20,000 bases of DNA from an uncultured virus (IMG/VR IMGVR_UViG_3300020727_000014) (taxonomy: Duplodnaviria > Heunggongvirae > Uroviricota > Caudoviricetes), in the IMG/VR virus record IMGVR_UViG_3300020727_000014; one strand, written 5' to 3'. Made by a program: the position numbers and the translations under genes. Positions within the stretch are counted from its first letter, which is position 1, and each line of letters opens with the position of its first letter. Shown here piece by piece: positions 11,241 to 19,347 of the stretch. The notes under the pieces were generated by a model that did not search any database, was not told where the DNA came from, and saw nothing but the letters and a program-made list of their open reading frames with translations.

Positions 11241-11323
11241 TTTAATTCTCTCTCTATCAATTAAGTATAAGTTATTATAATCTAAGTGCTTAGAAGAATC
11301 AAGCACTTTGTTGCTCTTTTATT

Positions 11324-11399
11324 TGGAGCCACTGAGAGAACTCGAATCCCCAACCTTCTGATTACAAATCAGACGCACTACCAATTGTGCTACAGTGGC
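11324..11399 (-). tRNA. tRNA-Thr(UGU)
   Basis: 76 nt cloverleaf: GCCACTG/CAGTGGC acceptor, GCAC/GTGC D stem, TCTGA-TTTGTAA-TCAGA, TTCGAGT T loop, encoded CCA. Confidence 0.92.
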
Positions 11400-11402
11400 A
11401 AA

Positions 11403-11566
11403 TTAAATAAGTTATTGTTCTCAATCGGAGTCGAACCGATGTTTCTCAACTAGAGTGTCCTAGCCCAAACTAGACGACAGAAATAAATCTCCGATGGGAT
11501 TTGAACCCATGTTTCTCAATTAGAGCGTCCTAAGCCTCTAGACGATAAGAGCAATAACTTATTTAA
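11403..11566 (-). ncRNA. double tRNA-like RNA closed by a 15-bp terminal stem
   Basis: Perfect IR 11403-11417/11552-11566 enclosing two D-arm + short hairpin + T-arm units; promoter at 11570-11598. Confidence 0.7.
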
Positions 11567-11581
11567 ATTATTATACTTTAA

Positions 11582-11689
11582 TCAGATGTATTTGTTAACC
11601 ACTTTTTTACATCTTTTATAAACTTTTTTCGATTCGAACACTTTCGGTTTGTTATATTTCCAAGCATGTTTAGCGGTTAAGTTATTCAT
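11582..11689 (-). CDS. small basic protein (35 aa)
   Basis: MNNLTAKHAWKYNKPKVFESKKVYKRCKK...; GAGAGA RBS. Confidence 0.55.
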   Translation of the reverse strand: MNNLTAKHAWKYNKPKVFESKKVYKRCKKVVNKYI

Positions 11690-11720
11690 TTCAGTTCTCT
11701 CTTTGGGTATTGCTGTTTAA

Positions 11721-11882
11721 TTATACAACTTCTCTTTCTATATAATAGAATTCAGACTCATACCTCCACTGTGTAAAAGTATATGCGGTCTGCTCATCTT
11801 CAAAAGTACCTGCGATTTTTGGTTCTTCCATGTAAGAATCATCATAATACATTACATTATAAACATATTTCTCTTTATTCAT
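11721..11882 (-). CDS. small hypothetical protein (53 aa)
   Basis: MNKEKYVYNVMYYDDSY...; follows cassette repeat. Confidence 0.65.
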   Translation of the reverse strand: MNKEKYVYNVMYYDDSYMEEPKIAGTFEDEQTAYTFTQWRYESEFYYIEREVV

Positions 11883-11964
11883 ATTATATAATTCTCTCTA
11901 TCAATTAAGTATAAGTTATTATATATAAGATAGAGAGAAATATCAAGCACTTTGTTTAAAAAAA

Positions 11965-12093
11965 TTAGAGAGCAAATTTGAGGACTCTTACCCCATAAAT
12001 AGATTTATGTAGGACAGCTAGGTTAATCCGTAGCCAAGTTGGGAAATGCTAGTAACATTTTCCTAACTACATCGATTTATACAAAATCAAATT
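11965..12093 (-). ncRNA. candidate small structured RNA (unit A)
   Basis: Shares ATGGGGTAAGAGTCCTCA and an AGCATYTCC..AASTTGG block with 12178-12272; immediately downstream of tRNA-Gly. Confidence 0.4.
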
Positions 12094-12094
12094 T

Positions 12095-12170
12095 TGGAGC
12101 GGACGATCGGGTATGATCCGACAACATTCTGATTGGAAATCAGACACTCTACCAATTGAGTTACGTCCGC
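12095..12170 (-). tRNA. tRNA-Gly(UCC), atypical T loop
   Basis: 76 nt: GCGGACG/CGTCCGC acceptor, ACTC/GAGT D stem, TCTGA-TTTCCAA-TCAGA, T loop ATCATAC, U73, CCA. Confidence 0.88.
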
Positions 12171-12177
12171 ATAATTT

Positions 12178-12317
12178 TGGTATCTCAGTGAGGACTCTTA
12201 CCCCATCTTTTAATCCAAGCCTAGACACCAACTTGGAGATGCTTTCTAATGGTTGATCAGACCAACATTTGAAGTTCCTACAGGATTCGAACCCATAATA
12301 CCACAGTCAAAGTGTAG
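12178..12317 (-). ncRNA. tRNA-Gln(UUG) 3' half fused to a tRNA-like unit (unit B) ending in ACCA
   Basis: CTACA-CTTTGAC-TGTGG anticodon arm and ATGGG-TTCGAAT-CCTGT T arm, then hairpins, TGGGG-TAAGAGT-CCTCA and CTGAGATACCA; promoter at 12327-12355. Confidence 0.5.
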
Positions 12318-12405
12318 TATGTTAATATTATACAGTCGGTTTTACCTTTTGTCAACCCTTTTTAAATTTCTTTTTATCTGATACCTGTAATACCATATTG
12401 TTCTT

Positions 12406-12666
12406 CTAAGAAGAACAATGTTCTTCTGCCCATTCAACTCCTTCCCAGAACATTTTTTGCTGTTCTATTTTCAAGGTATCCATTTTTGCATCCATTACCT
12501 CATAACTCATTTGCACAGGTAATGCAATTTCAGCAAATTTGATATACTTATTTTGTATATCATGAATATTTTTCCAGGCAGATTCACACCATTCGATATC
12601 CCAACCTAAATCAGTATGTTCATGTAAAAACATTTGATAAGCGACTTGTTCGATTCTTTTTGACAT
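12406..12666 (-). CDS. hypothetical protein
   Basis: 86 aa; intact paralog of 8332-8505; own promoter. Confidence 0.75.
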   Translation of the reverse strand: MSKRIEQVAYQMFLHEHTDLGWDIEWCESAWKNIHDIQNKYIKFAEIALPVQMSYEVMDAKMDTLKIEQQKMFWEGVEWAEEHCSS

Positions 12667-12720
12667 TTCTTTTCTCGTTTTGTTAGTATGTGTATATTAT
12701 ACTATCAGTATTACCAAATA

Positions 12721-12972
12721 TCAACCATTGATTAAACTATTTTCAACAAGTTTAACATCTTTATGCATCACGTAATATGAATCTGGAAATTCACTAAACG
12801 AAATCGCATAAACTTTTGACACACTTTTTTCTTCATTTATCAACACATCATAATTGTCAACTCTAACATTGGCAATGGTATCGATAATTGGTTCAGAACC
12901 ACCAAAATCATATTCAACTTCTAAACCTTTAACACTGTTAATATCTTGTTTCATCATTTCTAATACAGTCAT
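12721..12972 (-). CDS. hypothetical protein
   Basis: 83 aa after cassette repeat; stop TGA inside the next -35. Confidence 0.75.
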   Translation of the reverse strand: MTVLEMMKQDINSVKGLEVEYDFGGSEPIIDTIANVRVDNYDVLINEEKSVSKVYAISFSEFPDSYYVMHKDVKLVENSLING

Positions 12973-13054
12973 TTTAATTCTCTCTCAATTTCAAAGTATA
13001 AGTTATTATACCTTAACGATTAGAAAGAATCAAGCACTTTGTTGCAGTTTTATT

Positions 13055-13129
13055 TGGAGCCACTCCGCAGAATCAAACTGCGATCTAGAGATTACAAGTC
13101 AATTGTATTATCATTATACATAGAGTGGC
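13055..13129 (-). tRNA. divergent tRNA-Thr(UGU)-like gene (pseudo-tRNA or mimic)
   Basis: Perfect acceptor GCCACTC/GAGTGGC, D stem and T stem CGCAG/CTGCG, CCA; anticodon stem ATTGA/TCTCT has 2 mismatches. Confidence 0.7.
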
Positions 13130-13132
13130 AAA

Positions 13133-13293
13133 TTAAATTATAAAGACTGTAGGAATTGAACCTAACATAGAGACAGACCAAACCACAACCAGTGGTTATT
13201 TTTAAGTAGGAGAATTGAACTCCTTCGCAGGTCCTAGGGCTCCGCTTTAACCAAAATAATCCTAAAAATAAAATATCAATCTTTATAATTTAA
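13133..13293 (-). ncRNA. second double-T-arm RNA closed by a 14-bp terminal stem
   Basis: Perfect IR 13133-13146/13280-13293; T arms AGGAG-TTCAATT-CTCCT and TAGG-TTCAATT-CCTA. Confidence 0.6.
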
Positions 13294-13363
13294 ATTGCCC
13301 TCTTCGACTATGTATCCATAATCCTATCGACTTTAGGCTTTGCCGTTTTCCTAATTTTGGATG

Positions 13364-13477
13364 TTAATTTCCTATTAAAGAAACTAATATAACAGTCGCA
13401 ATAAATAACTGCCCGATTATATTCATTGGTAAAGTTACAACAAATTCTTTTGGCTGTCTTACTTTATAATCTTTCAT
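13364..13477 (-). CDS. small membrane protein (37 aa)
   Basis: ATG after cassette repeat; hydrophobic IIGQLFIATVILVSLIG. Confidence 0.5.
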   Translation of the reverse strand: MKDYKVRQPKEFVVTLPMNIIGQLFIATVILVSLIGN

Positions 13478-13567
13478 TTTATTTCTCTCTCTATCAATTA
13501 AGTATAAGTTATTATATATAAGATAGAGAGAAATATCAAGCACTTCTGTATTTAATATAAAGATAAT

Positions 13568-14038
13568 TTATGCTGCTTCTTCCTCTTCGTAAAGTGCCAT
13601 ATTTTCAGAGATGGCAAAACAATCATCAATTTCTTTGGGGATATTTTCTTCCACCCAATTAGAATCACCTTGGATACAGTATTCATCGTCCTCACCATCC
13701 TTGAATGCCCCACAGAAGCCAATACCGCCTTCGTAATAAAAAGCTGTAACAGTAAACCCAAGTTCCTCAAGTTTTTGGTATCCTTCTATTGGAGGGCTCC
13801 AAGCTGAATCAAAATACACCCCGACTGAAGTATCTGTTTGTTCATAAATATATGCTTCTACAATGTCCCATTTGGTTCCCCAATTTTCCACTACGAAGCC
13901 ATATTCCGATTCACAATCAGCTGGGATAGGTATAAATTCACGAAGGAAACTATCGTTCTCTAAGGCTGCCACAGCTCTTTGGATCATAATTGGATCATCA
14001 TGTTCTAAACGTAAATCATTTGAGCACCAATTAGGCAT
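13568..14038 (-). CDS. YubB/DUF1281-like ferredoxin-fold protein
   Basis: MPNWCSN, ENWGTKWD, FDSAWSPP and YYEGGIGFCG family motifs; AAGGAG RBS. Confidence 0.8.
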   Translation of the reverse strand: MPNWCSNDLRLEHDDPIMIQRAVAALENDSFLREFIPIPADCESEYGFVVENWGTKWDIVEAYIYEQTDTSVGVYFDSAWSPPIEGYQKLEELGFTVTAFYYEGGIGFCGAFKDGEDDEYCIQGDSNWVEENIPKEIDDCFAISENMALYEEEEAA

Positions 14039-14039
14039 C

Positions 14040-14150
14040 TTATTCTCCTTTCAATTTAGATTCAACAAAGTCAACCACATCAACAACTGTTAAGGTAAAT
14101 AACCAGAACAAACAACCTAAAACTACGAAGTATTGGATAAATTCTAACAT
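14040..14150 (-). CDS. small membrane protein (36 aa)
   Basis: MLEFIQYFVVLGCLFWLFTLTVV...; follows cassette repeat. Confidence 0.6.
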   Translation of the reverse strand: MLEFIQYFVVLGCLFWLFTLTVVDVVDFVESKLKGE

Positions 14151-14213
14151 TTTATTTCTCTCTCAATTAAGTATAAGTTATTATAATCTAAGTGCTTAGA
14201 AGAATCAAGCACT

Positions 14214-14414
14214 TTAAGCAAATATTTCTTTACTAAGAATTTCTTCTTCTACAGTTTTGTGACAAGCATTTAACATCAACAATGCTACTTGGGTCGCAAT
14301 ACATCTTTCTTGTCCAGAAAGTGTCTTAGTATATTCAAGAACTTCATCGATGCTTTGGGTTGAAAATAAATCAAATTTTGGAATTGGATTTGGAACAGGT
14401 CTATTATCAATCAT
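14214..14414 (-). CDS. hypothetical protein
   Basis: 66 aa exactly spanning two cassette repeats. Confidence 0.75.
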   Translation of the reverse strand: MIDNRPVPNPIPKFDLFSTQSIDEVLEYTKTLSGQERCIATQVALLMLNACHKTVEEEILSKEIFA

Positions 14415-14467
14415 TTTTTTCTCTCTCTATTAAGTATAAGTTATTATAACCGATACAGATTTAAAGA

Positions 14468-14710
14468 TCAAGCACTTTCAATAATATCTAATTGGATATT
14501 AACACCATCATATCTACCACCGATACCTAGGATCGTTTCAGTACGATTTTTGTATTCTAAACCAATCAATAAATTGTTTACATTTATGTTAAATTTACCA
14601 TTCTGGCCTGTACCCTCGCGGATTTGTTTGACAGTGGTGTAAAATGATCCACCGATATCAGCCAATACGATTTTCACTTTAGTGCTAGGTTTAAATTTAA
14701 ATTCTTTCAT
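14468..14710 (-). CDS. hypothetical protein
   Basis: 80 aa, GAGAGA RBS, stop TGA inside the next -35. Confidence 0.75.
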   Translation of the reverse strand: MKEFKFKPSTKVKIVLADIGGSFYTTVKQIREGTGQNGKFNINVNNLLIGLEYKNRTETILGIGGRYDGVNIQLDIIESA

Positions 14711-14721
14711 TACGATTCTCT

Positions 14722-14883
14722 CTAAAGGCTTGCAGGATTAAATTCGACATCAGCTAAAACTACAGTTACATCATAACATTTTTTAGATTTGAACAATTGA
14801 GCAGCAATTATTTGGGCTTCATATGAAGCAGCTTCTACAGTTGTTTTTCTTCCTTTATAAAAGGCGATATAAGTTCTTCTCAT
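14722..14883 (-). CDS. small phage hypothetical protein (53 aa)
   Basis: MRRTYIAFYKGRKTTVEAASYEAQ...; follows cassette repeat. Confidence 0.7.
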   Translation of the reverse strand: MRRTYIAFYKGRKTTVEAASYEAQIIAAQLFKSKKCYDVTVVLADVEFNPASL

Positions 14884-14957
14884 TTTATTTCTCTCTCTAT
14901 CAATTAAGTATAAGTTATTATAACCGATATAGATTTAAAAATCAAGCACTTTAAGAA

Positions 14958-15167
14958 TTATTTTGTTGAATAATGAACAGGTCTTTCGTATGATCCTGTT
15001 GATGATCTATACACACTTACATATCTAAAGTCTTCAGTAATAAAGCTCTCGGTTTGATCACGGTCTATGTTCAACCCTAATGGCCAAACCTCAACCAATC
15101 CTTCTGATTCTAATGCATCATTAAGGGTCGGGAACCAATTATTTTTTACTTCATATCTTCTTTTCAT
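14958..15167 (-). CDS. hypothetical protein
   Basis: Likely start MKRRYEV after GGAGAGG; SVYRSSTGSYERPVHY. Confidence 0.7.
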   Translation of the reverse strand: MKRRYEVKNNWFPTLNDALESEGLVEVWPLGLNIDRDQTESFITEDFRYVSVYRSSTGSYERPVHYSTK

Positions 15168-15223
15168 CTTTCCTCTCCAATTCAAATTATAAGTTATTAT
15201 AAATTAATAGGAAAATAATGTCA

Positions 15224-15261
15224 AGCACTTCGTAGCACTTCGTAGCACTTCGTAGCACTTC
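15224..15261. repeat. 10-bp tandem repeat AGCACTTCGT x3.8
   Basis: Direct read; multiplies the AAGTGCT box upstream of a -35. Confidence 0.9.
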
Positions 15262-15603
15262 TTAAATCTTATACAGAGCAGAATACCAACTTGTGCATTG
15301 CTCGGTATACAAACCCACAGCTTCTAATGCTTCGCTCATCTTATTAATAAGTTCATAATTATAATTATCATAACTGAAATAATCACCTACAGATCCACCA
15401 TCATGACAGATGATTAATTCTGAATGAGTACCATAATCTTCTTTTCGTTCTCTCCATTGTTCAGGGGAATAAAAGGTTGTACATCCACCTGTATCGATTA
15501 TTTTTTCTTCCATTACTTCCATAATGGTTTTATATGCAAGTTTCCCAACATCGGAAAGGTGTTCTGGCATTTGAGTATCTTCGGGTGAATAATTATTAAA
15601 CAT
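15262..15603 (-). CDS. hypothetical protein
   Basis: Start MFNNYSPE after GAGA motif; the ORF-track extension reads through the promoter. Confidence 0.8.
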   Translation of the reverse strand: MFNNYSPEDTQMPEHLSDVGKLAYKTIMEVMEEKIIDTGGCTTFYSPEQWRERKEDYGTHSELIICHDGGSVGDYFSYDNYNYELINKMSEALEAVGLYTEQCTSWYSALYKI

Positions 15604-15687
15604 TTTATTTTCTCTCTTTTCAATTAAGTATGAGTTATTATAACCTTGTTGCTGGGAAATGTCAAGCATTTCCCAGCAAGGGCGTGG

Positions 15688-16341
15688 CTATGCAGCCTCT
15701 AACATTAATCGGAATACTTTTTTCATTTTACGTCCATGTTGAGGATAAGCAATAACGTCTATATCCTTCGAATAACACGCTCTACAGCTCGAACATTTTC
15801 CCTCACGGTCATAGGCTTCGCAAACAAAAACACCTGCTGGTGCACTCTCAGCATCCGGAATGATTACCGATCCATGAATCCCTGGAGTAAATTCGCCAGT
15901 AATTGAATCAGAAGAGAATCTTACCTTAACATTAGGTAAGGCATCCATTTCGGCAATTACTTTTGCGAATTTTGCAAATTTACCCATCCTTGTTGGCAAC
16001 CAATATTGTGTGTTTGGAGTTGCTTTCATTACACTTAATATCTTTTTAGCAAGCTTTAAAGAATACATATCACCACTATCAAAAAACCTGAACCACTTTG
16101 CATTTTTCATCTCAGCAGTCATATCAGAGACCCATTCAGGACGTCTCCAATCTTCTTTATTCTCAGCTCTTGGTTCTTTTACGTTTGGGAATGCATAGTT
16201 ACCAGTGGTGGCATAACAACCTGAACAAGCTGGAACCAACTCACCGTCCTCGTTTAATGATCCAGGGCAAGTTTCAAGAGCTTGTAAGCTCCAACTTTTC
16301 ACGTTATCAAGTTTAGAAGTTTTAGAAATTCTTACAGTCAT
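15688..16341 (-). CDS. Gp88-like (radical-SAM-like Fe-S) phage protein
   Basis: SWSL...TCPGS...ACSGCYA, FRFFDSGD, WLPTR, VRFSSD and C...CSSCRAC...IAYPQH match phage gene product 88 family patterns. Confidence 0.8.
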   Translation of the reverse strand: MTVRISKTSKLDNVKSWSLQALETCPGSLNEDGELVPACSGCYATTGNYAFPNVKEPRAENKEDWRRPEWVSDMTAEMKNAKWFRFFDSGDMYSLKLAKKILSVMKATPNTQYWLPTRMGKFAKFAKVIAEMDALPNVKVRFSSDSITGEFTPGIHGSVIIPDAESAPAGVFVCEAYDREGKCSSCRACYSKDIDVIAYPQHGRKMKKVFRLMLEAA

Positions 16342-16424
16342 TTTAATTCTCTCTCAATTAATTAGTATAAGATATTATAACATATTAGGTTTCAAAGGTC
16401 AAGCACTTCGTTGCCAAGTATATC

Positions 16425-16595
16425 CTATAAAATTACTTTTTCAGACAACATGATAAATTGTTTGAGCCCAAAATCGTCAATAATCCAACCACAAAACGGG
16501 TCTGGGGAAGAATAATGATCTTGTGGGTCAATCACCTCATACCATTTTTCTGGGGTGATTGACAGGGAGATTGAAGTTGCGGTTTTAACTTTCAT
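16425..16595 (-). CDS. small hypothetical protein (56 aa)
   Basis: MKVKTATSISLSITPEKWYEVI...IIDDFG; TAATG coupling to upstream gene. Confidence 0.6.
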   Translation of the reverse strand: MKVKTATSISLSITPEKWYEVIDPQDHYSSPDPFCGWIIDDFGLKQFIMLSEKVIL

Positions 16596-16825
16596 TAGGT
16601 GAAGATGTTGTATTGAGCTTCAAGGTTTGCGAACTCAGCTTCAAGGATGACCATTTGTTGCTTAGATAAGTTTAGGCGATCTATAAAATAAGCCAGTGAG
16701 GTGGTCGCTGCTTCTAAAGTATAAAGATAATTTATATCAGATCCATAAGTGTCGTACTTAGATCTTTCTTGAGCCACTTTAACAGTTAGATCAACAAGGG
16801 CGAAGACGGAATCAGTTTTAATCAT
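16595..16825 (-). CDS. hypothetical protein
   Basis: 76 aa after cassette repeat. Confidence 0.75.
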   Translation of the reverse strand: MIKTDSVFALVDLTVKVAQERSKYDTYGSDINYLYTLEAATTSLAYFIDRLNLSKQQMVILEAEFANLEAQYNIFT

Positions 16826-16882
16826 TTTAATTCTCTCTCAATTAATTAGTATAAGATATTATAACATATTAGGTTTCAAAGG

Positions 16883-17097
16883 TCAAGCACTTCTAACGGT
16901 CGCTTCGAAAAATAATTCACTTAATTTTTGGATAAGTTCTTCTTTACTTAAATCAATTAAATAACTATTGTTTTTTCCTCTTAAATTAAGGTAAGTTTTA
17001 TCTTTTTTCATTGAACTTTCAACTACAAAATGTTCATGTTCACTTAGGAAAAAAGTGAACGACCCACCGCCATCACGTGGTAAAGTAATTTTTTCAT
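16883..17097 (-). pseudogene. frameshifted cassette gene
   Basis: ATG+A6 stops after 17 codons; one extra A gives a 71-aa ORF (MKKITLPRDGGGSFTF...ATVRSA) ending in the next -35 TGA. Confidence 0.6.
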
Positions 17098-17168
17098 TTT
17101 ATTTCTCTCTCTTTATTAAGTATAAATTATTATACTAAAGACCCATCCTTAGGTCAAGCACTTTTAGA

Positions 17169-17384
17169 TTAAATTTCTATTAGAAGTTTTCTTATCGCAG
17201 AAATTTCTTGGCTATCCCATTCTTTAGAATATTTTTTCTCAGGAAAATGTATAAGGATTAAATACTGAATATTTTCTAAAGTATATTTTAAGGTATCGAT
17301 GTTAATTTTACCATCATTATAGTCATCTCCAGCGAAAAGGACTTGAACCAACAAAGAATTAAATAAGGCTTGTTTTTTTGACAT
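17169..17384 (-). CDS. hypothetical protein
   Basis: 71 aa between two cassette repeats. Confidence 0.75.
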   Translation of the reverse strand: MSKKQALFNSLLVQVLFAGDDYNDGKINIDTLKYTLENIQYLILIHFPEKKYSKEWDSQEISAIRKLLIEI

Positions 17385-17452
17385 TTTTCTCTCCGATCAA
17401 TTAATTATGATTCATTATACCTTAAGGAGAGAGAGAATACAAGCACTTTTTT

Positions 17453-17872
17453 TTATTTTCCGATGTTTATTGACCGAACAAGTTCCATTCTGTATTCATT
17501 ATTCGGTCCTTCAAAATTTACAATCACATCATCAATTTCAGCACCAATCCGAATGTATTCAATATTCAGGTCAGGATAATTAAATGTTAAATTATAAAAC
17601 AAATCGTCAAAGAAACTTACAGCTGGGAAAGCCACATCACCAGGATACCATTTTTCCCGCGTCGCCTGAAATAACAATTCATAATAACCATTTTCAGCAA
17701 CATGAAACAATGTTTTACCAGTTAGATTAAAAGAATTTTGTTCAAGATCCATTACCTTTAATTGTACTTCATCAGGAAGTTCGGCGAATTTATCTTCATA
17801 TTCATAACCAAATTCTTCCATTTGGACAGCACCACCGTAAATCCTTACAGCCACGTCAGATAAATAAGCCAT
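17453..17872 (-). CDS. hypothetical phage protein
   Basis: MAYLSDV...KWY...EYIRIGAEIDD; AGGAG RBS. Confidence 0.8.
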   Translation of the reverse strand: MAYLSDVAVRIYGGAVQMEEFGYEYEDKFAELPDEVQLKVMDLEQNSFNLTGKTLFHVAENGYYELLFQATREKWYPGDVAFPAVSFFDDLFYNLTFNYPDLNIEYIRIGAEIDDVIVNFEGPNNEYRMELVRSINIGK

Positions 17873-17874
17873 AA

Positions 17875-18069
17875 TTAAACTCCTGCAAAGGTATTAGAGA
17901 TAGAAAAGCGAGGAGCATCACCACCAACGGGTTTACCTCTAGATTCCTTAGCACGACATGTTGATTTAATTTTAATTTGTTTAGCAGGAACTTCTTTAAT
18001 TGAATTGCCATTTAGAACGAATTCTAGAGTGTCGTTTAGAAGTTTTTGTCTCAATTCTGTTTTAGTCAT
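17875..18069 (-). CDS. hypothetical protein
   Basis: 64 aa after cassette repeat. Confidence 0.7.
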   Translation of the reverse strand: MTKTELRQKLLNDTLEFVLNGNSIKEVPAKQIKIKSTCRAKESRGKPVGGDAPRFSISNTFAGV

Positions 18070-18136
18070 TTTTTCTCTCTCAATTAATTAGTATAAGTTA
18101 TTATAACCGATGTAGTTTTATAATACAAGCACTTTA

Positions 18137-18574
18137 TTAATATTCTTCGTCTGGATCAAAGTATTCATCATCTTCGTCCTCAGGCTCCCATGCAGTGTCT
18201 ATACAAACGTTTCCGAAGTCAAATATACCACTCTCGGCGATTACAGAAAACGGAGCGTAGAAGTCGTGTACGACGCCATCAGTTACATTTTTTTGATCTT
18301 CCTGAGAAATATCTTTAGTTGCGATTATACCTAATAAACCAGCATCTACACCATAAGTATTGCCTAAATTATCTTGATATTCGCCATCACCATAAGCTGT
18401 CATCGCTAAAAAAAACCTACGACCGTCCGATAAATTAAAAGCACCGTTAATTAAATTATTACCTTTAATTGTTAAATCGCAAACTTCTTTCCACTCATCA
18501 TGCATCACATAACTTAGGTCGCCGATATAATATTCGCCAGAATTAAATTCAGCAGAAACTTTTTCATATCTCAT
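18137..18574 (-). CDS. conserved-looking phage protein, DUF4241-like motifs
   Basis: YYIGDLSY, TAYGDGEY, GVDAGLLGI; acidic tail. Confidence 0.75.
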   Translation of the reverse strand: MRYEKVSAEFNSGEYYIGDLSYVMHDEWKEVCDLTIKGNNLINGAFNLSDGRRFFLAMTAYGDGEYQDNLGNTYGVDAGLLGIIATKDISQEDQKNVTDGVVHDFYAPFSVIAESGIFDFGNVCIDTAWEPEDEDDEYFDPDEEY

Positions 18575-18685
18575 TTTATTTCTCTCAATTAATTAGTATA
18601 AGTTATTATAACCGATGTAGTTTTATAATACAAGCACTTTTTAGGACACAGGATTTTCCCGCGTCCCATCAAGTTAAGTAATAGG

Positions 18686-18985
18686 TTAACATTCTTCTAC
18701 TTCAGCTTCAACCTTAAATTTTCTTACCCAATCGTAAATTTGGGAATCGTTAAGTAATTCAATACCTTGAACTATAAATTTAGCGATAGACGAATTTAAC
18801 TTAGTTCGTTGAGCGTATTCGGTTGAAATTTCATTTTCATCGTCGTAAACATATAACCATATTCCGTAAGCATCAACAAGTATGATACCGATATTTTCAT
18901 CTACGGCATAATAAGGATCAGAACCATCTTCAAAACTAGAAGCACCTAAATAAGCTTCATCCCAACCTTTAGTAAATTTTATCAT
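18686..18985 (-). CDS. hypothetical protein
   Basis: 99 aa after cassette repeat. Confidence 0.75.
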   Translation of the reverse strand: MIKFTKGWDEAYLGASSFEDGSDPYYAVDENIGIILVDAYGIWLYVYDDENEISTEYAQRTKLNSSIAKFIVQGIELLNDSQIYDWVRKFKVEAEVEEC

Positions 18986-19051
18986 TTTTATTTCTCTCTC
19001 AATTAATTAGTATAAGTTATTATAACCGATGTAGTTTTATAATACAAGCAC

Positions 19052-19222
19052 TTAATAATATATTATCAAATTATTTTCGGTTGGGTCTATTTCTATATCA
19101 AAAGCTGGTGTTAATATAACATCCTTTATTCTAGATTCGCTTATAAATATTTCGTTGTTTAGATCTACACCTTGGGCTTCCGCTTGTAATAATAAATCTA
19201 ATAAATCTTTAGCTGTAATCAT
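19052..19222 (-). CDS. small hypothetical protein (56 aa)
   Basis: MITAKDLLDLLLQAEAQG...; the stop TAA forms the start of the next AAGTGC box. Confidence 0.7.
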   Translation of the reverse strand: MITAKDLLDLLLQAEAQGVDLNNEIFISESRIKDVILTPAFDIEIDPTENNLIIYY

Positions 19223-19347
19223 TTTTATTTCTCTCTTTATTAATTAGTATAAGTTATTATAACCGATGTAGTTTTATAATACAAGCACTTTTTTACATTT
19301 ATTCCTAATCTATTTTTTTCCCGTGTCGCATTTTTTAAAAAAAGTGA

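Follow-up and report, generated by a model that had tools for sequence, protein, structure and literature searches.

A family of phage RNAs predicted to join two tRNA-like bodies through a shared anticodon helix

Introduction

What is an RNA that carries two D arms and two T arms in one chain and no anticodon, and what could a phage use it for? The question arises from a locus of approximately 164 nt in a 20,000-nt stretch of phage DNA (hereafter the window), whose source contig is 41.4 kb long, 31% GC, and 29% complete, with many small genes behind sigma-70-type promoters. A first-pass annotation, made from the letters of the window, had described the locus as a two-elbow tRNA mimic with swapped acceptor strands and proposed that it acts either as a decoy for tRNA-targeting defence nucleases or as a scaffold resembling a Y RNA; a pair of decaying tandem tRNA pseudogenes was named as the alternative. 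Here, we follow up these proposals by folding, homology searches, and covariation.

Results

The RNA gene lies between a promoter-like site and tRNA-Thr

All the sequence motifs on which the annotation was built are present in their places on the minus strand. A pattern scan recovered the proposed sigma-70-type promoter-like site (11598-11570, 11/12 match, 17-nt spacer), which ends 3 nt short of the terminal stem; such sites number 22 in the region versus 17.7 in shuffled sequences, a count not above chance. Given the usual promoter spacing, transcription is predicted to start at approximately 11563-11566. On the other side, the annotated tRNA-Thr (UGU) follows, starting 3 nt beyond the terminal stem, and the RNA indeed has no CCA, as its positions 73-76 read AATA. 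The features, with the parts of the RNA named after the fold argued for below, are as follows:

11570-11598, minus: sigma-70-type promoter-like site, 11/12 match, 17-nt spacer (pattern scan)
11403-11566, minus: double-tRNA RNA gene, about 164 nt, permutation A, Glu-type D arms (sequence, fold, and relatives)
11546-11566, minus: terminal stem, 5' strand, of which 11552-11546 are acceptor positions 1-7 of the outer body
11527-11545, minus: positions 8-9 and D arm 1 (G15, GG in the loop), in the outer body with variable loop 2 and T arm 2
11515-11525, minus: anticodon segment 1, 11 nt, one strand of the shared central helix
11494-11514, minus: variable loop 1 (4 nt, C48) and T arm 1, in the inner body with D arm 2
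11478-11493, minus: sealed acceptor hairpin of the inner body, 6 bp with a 4-nt loop
11457-11477, minus: positions 8-9 and D arm 2
11445-11455, minus: anticodon segment 2, 11 nt, the other strand of the shared central helix
11424-11444, minus: variable loop 2 and T arm 2, outer body
11403-11423, minus: terminal stem, 3' strand, without CCA
11324-11399, minus: tRNA-Thr(UGU), assigned to the same transcript as the double RNA

The window RNA folds stably, with its acceptor strands paired crosswise

The 15-bp terminal stem of the annotation is present and is followed, inside a C-A mismatch, by 5 further base pairs, giving 20 paired positions out of 21. The minimum free energy of the RNA is -48.2 kcal/mol (z = -3.84; 0/200 shuffles equally good), and the junction pattern of T arm, closed stem, and D arm occurs once in the window and in 0/200 shuffles. 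The acceptor strands pair as had been claimed, with Watson-Crick pairs at 5/7 and 5/7 positions crosswise versus 0/7 and 2/7 within the units.

The annotation had also folded each anticodon segment into its own CTC...GAG mini-hairpin. Constrained folding gave energies of -47.5 with these hairpins and -44.9 with the two segments paired crosswise, in a central helix with 10 possible pairs and two single bulges. Because both units carry the same 3-bp ends, the window sequence is neutral between the two folds; the crosswise assignment of this RNA rests on homology, since neither its own sequence nor its folding energy chooses.

Relatives occur in two arrangements and two D-arm classes

A strict pattern search returned a single near-identical strain (L019, 2 differences in 164 nt). 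Looser patterns returned 3, 67, 69, and 73 loci in viral sequences, 6 in metagenomes, and 35 in genomes, most of them normal tRNA clusters, chance matches, or single anticodon-less units. Nineteen two-unit RNAs with Glu-type D arms were chosen by eye. Ten of them end in the acceptor stem (type A: the window RNA, L010, L149, L050, L069, L053, L160, L193, L214, and L166), and nine end in the anticodon stem, with both acceptors sealed (type B: L015, L020, L055, L102, L011, L012, L085, L246, and L210). The cells counted below are not all independent, because L010/L149 and L102/L246 are close pairs. L019, two loci with tandem single units that have their own acceptors (L013 and L017), and the partial forms L207, L253, L036, and L054 were excluded from the counts.

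Since these patterns demanded a Glu-type D arm, a control search was run with the common AGCUC D arm, which yielded at least 118 loci. Among the matches listed, 27 candidates had two D arms and a short first unit, and a filter kept 18 of them. The core and Levitt counts used 19 AGCUC RNAs, namely the 18 minus L270, which is very short, together with L289 and L306; these two had been dropped by the filter's acceptor test although both acceptors of each are sealed hairpins. The analysed set thus holds 38 two-unit relatives including the window RNA, nearly all on phage contigs of 31-70% GC; motif conservation in the first unit is partly built in, because the relatives were found with motif patterns.

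One member (L166) was located in the genome of a cultured Undibacterium. The sequence of L015 recurs unchanged in the cultured phage Lacusarx, which infects Sphingobium sp. IP1; there it occupies positions 67085-67231 of NC_041927, between tRNA-Pro and tRNA-Val, and carries no annotation. The tRNA passages of the Lacusarx paper (PMC5648845) do not mention it. When 50,697 phage records were searched by BLAST with the window RNA, only short tRNA-like matches came up, and a search with the neighbouring proteins gave the near-identical strain only. Matches in Streptomyces phage Faust and in BcepSauron proved not to be doubles.

Covariation places the two anticodon segments in one helix

Where the two anticodon segments of a relative differ in sequence, the 5' half of each pairs with the 3' half of the other. 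In the Glu class (19 RNAs), 106/114 cells at the first three positions are Watson-Crick when the segments are paired crosswise versus 70/114 when each is paired within its own unit; over four positions, the counts are 128/152 versus 79/152. Shuffling the partners 10,000 times gave a mean of 64.5 and a maximum of 89. Taken RNA by RNA, crosswise pairing wins in 14, ties in 4 (the window RNA, L010, L149, and L210), and loses slightly in one (L050), with T-stem registers set by hand for L010, L149, L214, and L085 and the anchor corrected for L020. The AGCUC class agrees: among the 18 RNAs from the matches listed, crosswise pairing reaches 110/144 cells versus 73/144 and wins in 18/18, and 5,000 shuffles gave a mean of 71.6 and a maximum of 86. 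The mini-hairpins are therefore probably a misreading, and the segments are better taken as the two strands of one shared helix.

RNAalifold, given no input structure, found both crosswise helices in 8 type B RNAs and one in the 10 type A RNAs, the other being misaligned by gaps. In the type A alignment, 35 pairs account for 339 cells, of which 92.9% are paired, and 24/35 pairs have changed on both sides; 0/500 shuffles reached these values, for a structure that was itself derived from that alignment. Compensatory changes affect the outer stem and the crosswise helix as well as the sealed acceptor and both T stems. The pairing statistics indicate that the fold is under selection.

The tertiary core gives a further reading of the wiring. 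In tRNA, the Levitt pair is G15:C48 or A15:U48. Across the 38 RNAs, positions 15 and 48 fit this rule in 74/76 cells when combined crosswise versus 58/76 within units. Eight RNAs have units unlike enough to be informative, and 8/8 choose the crosswise combination; as all eight are type B, the crosswise evidence for type A consists of the anticodon-helix pairing only.

If the anticodon segments pair between units, the D1 core goes with variable loop 2 and T arm 2, and the D2 core with variable loop 1 and T arm 1, and the "swapped acceptors" become the ordinary acceptors of two tRNA bodies set tail to tail. The RNA is thus predicted to be two normally wired tRNA bodies that share one anticodon helix of about 11 bp, one of them with a sealed acceptor. 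The outer body would comprise the open acceptor, D1, V2, and T2, and the inner body the sealed acceptor, T1, V1, and D2. Types A and B are circular permutations, two openings of the same ring. Were the helices coaxial, D stem, joint, and D stem would span approximately 21 steps, or roughly two turns.

The elbow and the spacing are kept, and the anticodon loop is dropped

Both units have GG in the D loop in 34/38 RNAs, and both T loops are canonical in 34/38, a count partly built into the search patterns. The D/T elbow core of tRNA (G18G19, T loop, and Levitt pair) is present in the family, and together with the family-wide pairing it supports the annotated idea of a conserved two-elbow tRNA mimic without an anticodon. 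The anticodon segments measure 11-14 nt in 29/29 Glu-class strands. The distance from D to T is 16-19 nt in 50/50 units (with the upper bound set by the patterns) versus 22-23 in normal tRNAs, and by this distance a 7-nt anticodon loop on a 5-bp stem is absent. Sealed acceptors range over 3-49 nt, with 6/64 at 8 nt or less and 35/64 at 14-20 nt, as long as a normal acceptor with its loop. A CCA is encoded at 2/12 open acceptor ends, all of type A; type B has both acceptors sealed.

The D arms fall into two classes. Those of the window RNA are of the Glu type, as annotated, yet this is not a feature of the family: 19 analysed relatives, from the matches listed, have the AGCUC type. As the control search found the same layout there, the architecture is not specific to tRNA-Glu, and we rejected a tie to tRNA-Glu identity.

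Reduced forms exist as well. L207, upstream of rIIA, has lost one T arm and kept the crosswise pairing; in L253 and L036, the second D arm has degenerated; L054 is one unit with the outer stem; and the joint of L270 is very short. The tandem anticodon-less singles at L013 and L017, each with its own acceptor, are possible intermediates towards the fused form.

Single anticodon-less bodies with a Glu-type D arm and their own acceptor were seen at 43 viral loci (e.g., L009, L024, L039, L048, and L051); CCA is encoded by 1/43 of them versus 14/21 normal-length tRNAs at the same loci. Dimerisation of these singles through palindromic loops was considered and is not supported: palindromes of at least 6 nt occur in 11/43 versus 7.6 expected (p ~0.10), and 4-nt palindromes in 24 versus 24.9 expected. 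At L034, L030, and L164, single units are inserted in a conserved flanking RNA, which we take to resemble the C4 antisense RNA of P1/P4-type phages. A number of bacterial loci (L169, L171, L180, L184, L185, etc.) are otherwise normal tRNA-Glu genes with a few anticodon-arm bases missing and could be assembly errors or pseudogenes.

The inner body resembles the tRNA-like module of YrlA RNA

According to passages of Chen et al. (2014; PMC4201824), YrlA contains a circularly permuted tRNA body in the order variable loop, T arm, sealed acceptor, D arm, in which the Levitt pair covaries and the anticodon stem serves as a connector that leads to the Ro60-binding stem; its gene lies within about 4 kb of rsr, on the same strand. 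The inner body of the window RNA (11510-11457) has exactly this order, and covariation bears out the YrlA-like module of T arm, closed acceptor, and D arm that had been noted. Unlike in YrlA (RF02553), however, the anticodon stem here connects to another tRNA body.

The Ro60 motif GNCGAAN0-1G has no match in the window RNA plus 19 nt upstream. The YrlA model finds nothing in the window at E up to 10 and nothing at gathering on 20 Glu-class loci. AGCUC-class relatives, from the matches listed, match it at 28-48.5 bits, often twice, against a gathering score of 69, and nearly all of these matches cover only model positions 23-89 of 114, mostly without 1-22 and 90-114. The tRNA part of the Rfam comparison gave only signals below threshold, each window unit scoring 22-23 bits against RF00005 (gathering 29), and the mascRNA model scored 12.3 of 42.5 bits.

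Ro60 and RtcB, for which the annotation had suggested a search, are rare. TROVE (Ro60) was found in 2/40 records overall (2/20 and 0/20; among near-complete ones, 2/10 and 0/4), one match approximately 8.6 kb from the RNA and the other a weak 55-residue fragment; RtcB was found in 3/15 records. TROVE has no match in the 41-kb contig of the window, which is only 29% complete and extends more than 8 kb to each side of the RNA. The absence of the Ro60 motif and the scarcity of Ro60 argue that the double RNA is not a Y RNA. By analogy, it would work like a doubled YrlA tRNA-like domain, while motif, score, and gene context all place it outside the Y RNAs.

The architecture differs from other known RNAs

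A canonical tRNA with a Glu-type D arm and a 4-nt variable loop shares with each body the D arm, G15:C48, GG, T arm, and acceptor-length stems; here, by contrast, there is no anticodon loop and mostly no CCA, and two bodies lie in one chain. Phage tRNA clusters are known to harbour other stable RNAs, namely T4 species 1/2 (rnaC, rnaD) and T5 RNA1, RNA2, RNA3, RNAI, III, IV, 2H, and X (GenBank), but none of these has two D arms or a junction of T arm, sealed acceptor, and D arm. Identity with them was rejected, as the family model has no match in either region at E 1e-6. By eye, T5 RNA2 (L076:10960-11084) is tRNA-like, and its anticodon arm harbours a further T-loop hairpin.

No Rfam family covers the double RNA, and no description was found in the full-text literature searched, which leaves most subscription journals outside. 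The relevant passages of PMC10085705 and PMC7824862 do not describe the architecture, and six of our contig ids are absent from four supplement files of Fremin et al. (2023; PMC10690425), other supplements of which may list the motif as an anonymous candidate among 10,006. The architecture is conserved and undescribed, belongs among the known tRNA mimics, and defines a widespread phage family.

Genomic contexts vary

ARAGORN called a tRNA at 10/22 loci, which lie in tRNA clusters. Other copies precede rIIA, head genes, or a Mu-like baseplate gene, or have RtcB and a tmRNA nearby; a scan of 62 + 48 proteins revealed no recurrent neighbour gene. Scans for a promoter ahead of L214 and of L053 were negative, and an intrinsic terminator follows L053 at a distance of approximately 45 nt.

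Discussion

The family has retained the tRNA body and the distance from one body to the other and has dropped the anticodon loop, the free acceptor, and the identity, and the simplest use of such an RNA is as a stable, two-headed ligand that is no substrate. Our best guess, which could well prove wrong, is a free-standing, trans-acting, uncleavable decoy for host proteins that read tRNA shape. In this scheme, the RNA would be made early from its own promoter, an RNase P cut before tRNA-Thr would free its 3' end, and it would accumulate as a stable species. The paired anticodon segments (~11 bp) would leave no anticodon loop to be read or cut, and most members would offer no free CCA end, while the two elbows would be displayed with about two helical turns between their T/acceptor stacks. 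Host readers of tRNA shape would bind it as a non-substrate, and the real tRNAs would be spared. The likeliest targets would be oligomeric tRNA-targeting defence nucleases or toxins, or effectors that cut or modify tRNA. As outlined in parts of a recent review (PMC13434031), tRNA-cleaving defences are common, and HepS and bacterial Schlafen cut in the anticodon loop; because the double RNA has no such loop, a decoy would have to bind tRNases of this type through the tRNA body. A decoy role is compatible with all the evidence gathered, in which we found no link to any defence system and no binding partner.

More tentatively still, the RNA may be a natural pseudo-two-fold tRNA dimer in one chain, with at least two origins, permuted, and serving as a bivalent, uncleavable inhibitor of tRNA-targeting defences. 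That joint reading would cast it as a tRNA-shaped counterpart of the RNA anti-CRISPRs (Racrs), which passages of PMC10651486 describe as phage small RNAs that mimic a host RNA. Racrs are a precedent for an RNA decoy but mimic CRISPR repeats, not tRNA shape, and no tRNA-shaped anti-defence RNA of such a kind was found in the literature searched.

A less likely role is that of a cis element for processing or stability, at which RNase P/Z cuts or exonucleases stall, as with t-elements or mascRNA. The many sealed acceptors of 14-20 nt also fit RNase P processing, and in M. smegmatis a YrlA whose sealed acceptor has 7 bp undergoes RNase P cleavage and acquires CCA (passages of PMC4201824). Many copies sit in tRNA clusters or just upstream of rIIA, baseplate, and head genes, and two type A members encode CCA. 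One tRNA body would suffice as a cutting signal, however, which leaves two fused bodies and two permutations unexplained. The shortest sealed acceptors, at 8 nt or less, also count against a cut, as do three further points: the open acceptor of the window RNA is buried in a 21-bp stem that begins at the predicted transcription start, tRNA-Thr has a cutting site of its own, and L053 is followed by a terminator.

We regard as improbable a ligand of the ribosome or of translation factors, whose elbows would meet the L1 stalk, the P/E sites, RelA, or EF-Tu-independent factors so that translation is modulated or preserved. Neighbouring tRNAs on the ribosome lie side by side and not anticodon to anticodon, and this arrangement speaks against such a role for the tail-to-tail bodies, which furthermore have no anticodon or CCA to dock. 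In favour of the role are the conservation of the elbow features and of the distance between bodies, and the fact that copies are often found in tRNA clusters; for the YrlA module, contact with the ribosome is one of the options named by Chen et al., in the passages cited (PMC4201824).

We judge just as improbable that two YrlA-type domains tether or block host PNPase or Ro60, the scaffold role of the annotation. The exact YrlA order of the inner body (passages of PMC4201824) and the frequent double matches of AGCUC-class relatives to the middle of the YrlA model speak for it. All those matches stay below the gathering score, though, with none in the window, and the missing Ro60 motif and rarity of TROVE weaken it further. 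Two tandem tRNA-Glu genes decaying without function, to which the sub-threshold tRNA scores of the units, the degenerate forms, and the tandem singles might point, are barely credible: decay is refuted for the family by the compensatory changes in the helices named above, and the crosswise Levitt covariation and the recurrence of one fold in two permutations and two D-arm classes speak against it too.

Whether or not the decoy reading holds, the fold is unusual in having two complete, crosswise-wired tRNA cores, for which the evidence extends to a tertiary pair, and in occurring naturally as two circular permutations and two sequence classes among phages of low to high GC. Being invisible to ARAGORN and below Rfam thresholds, the family has stayed unannotated in phage tRNA clusters, a cultured phage's included. 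It shows that the tRNA-like module of YrlA occurs, and is under selection, without Ro60; the question of the module's binding partner thereby becomes directly testable. If the RNA is a decoy, it would be a counter-defence made of RNA, aimed at immune systems that cut tRNA, and would provide a bivalent tRNA scaffold of natural origin.

Other elements in the window and beyond

A second structured RNA of about 163 nt (z -3.0) lies at 13134-13296 (minus); it combines a terminal stem with two T arms, of which one sits nested on an inner stem. Its layout differs, it has no match to the double-RNA model at E 0.001, and elsewhere it was seen only in the near-identical strain. It is directly followed, at 13058-13129 (minus), by a degenerate tRNA-Thr-like gene that scores 42.3 bits in Rfam and escaped ARAGORN; in strain L001, the 5' half of this gene equals that of the intact tRNA-Thr, which suggests recombination between the two cassettes. 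At 12200-12333 and 11979-12095 (minus), a lone T arm stands behind a 12/12 promoter with a short hairpin motif; the motif is repeated at ~12190-12207 and 11979-11995 and recurs in the tRNA clusters of L001 and L007. A promoter-plus-leader cassette is repeated before small genes at 11 places from 11276 to 19258 (minus), and an IS200/IS605-type tnpA and tnpB pair lies inside the phage contig (G000:C1:14975-16601). In Streptomyces phage Faust, an unannotated module of T arm, sealed acceptor, and D arm (L389:1200-1265), not scored as YrlA, lies approximately 700 nt upstream of a Ro-like gene and is probably an unrecognised phage Y RNA.
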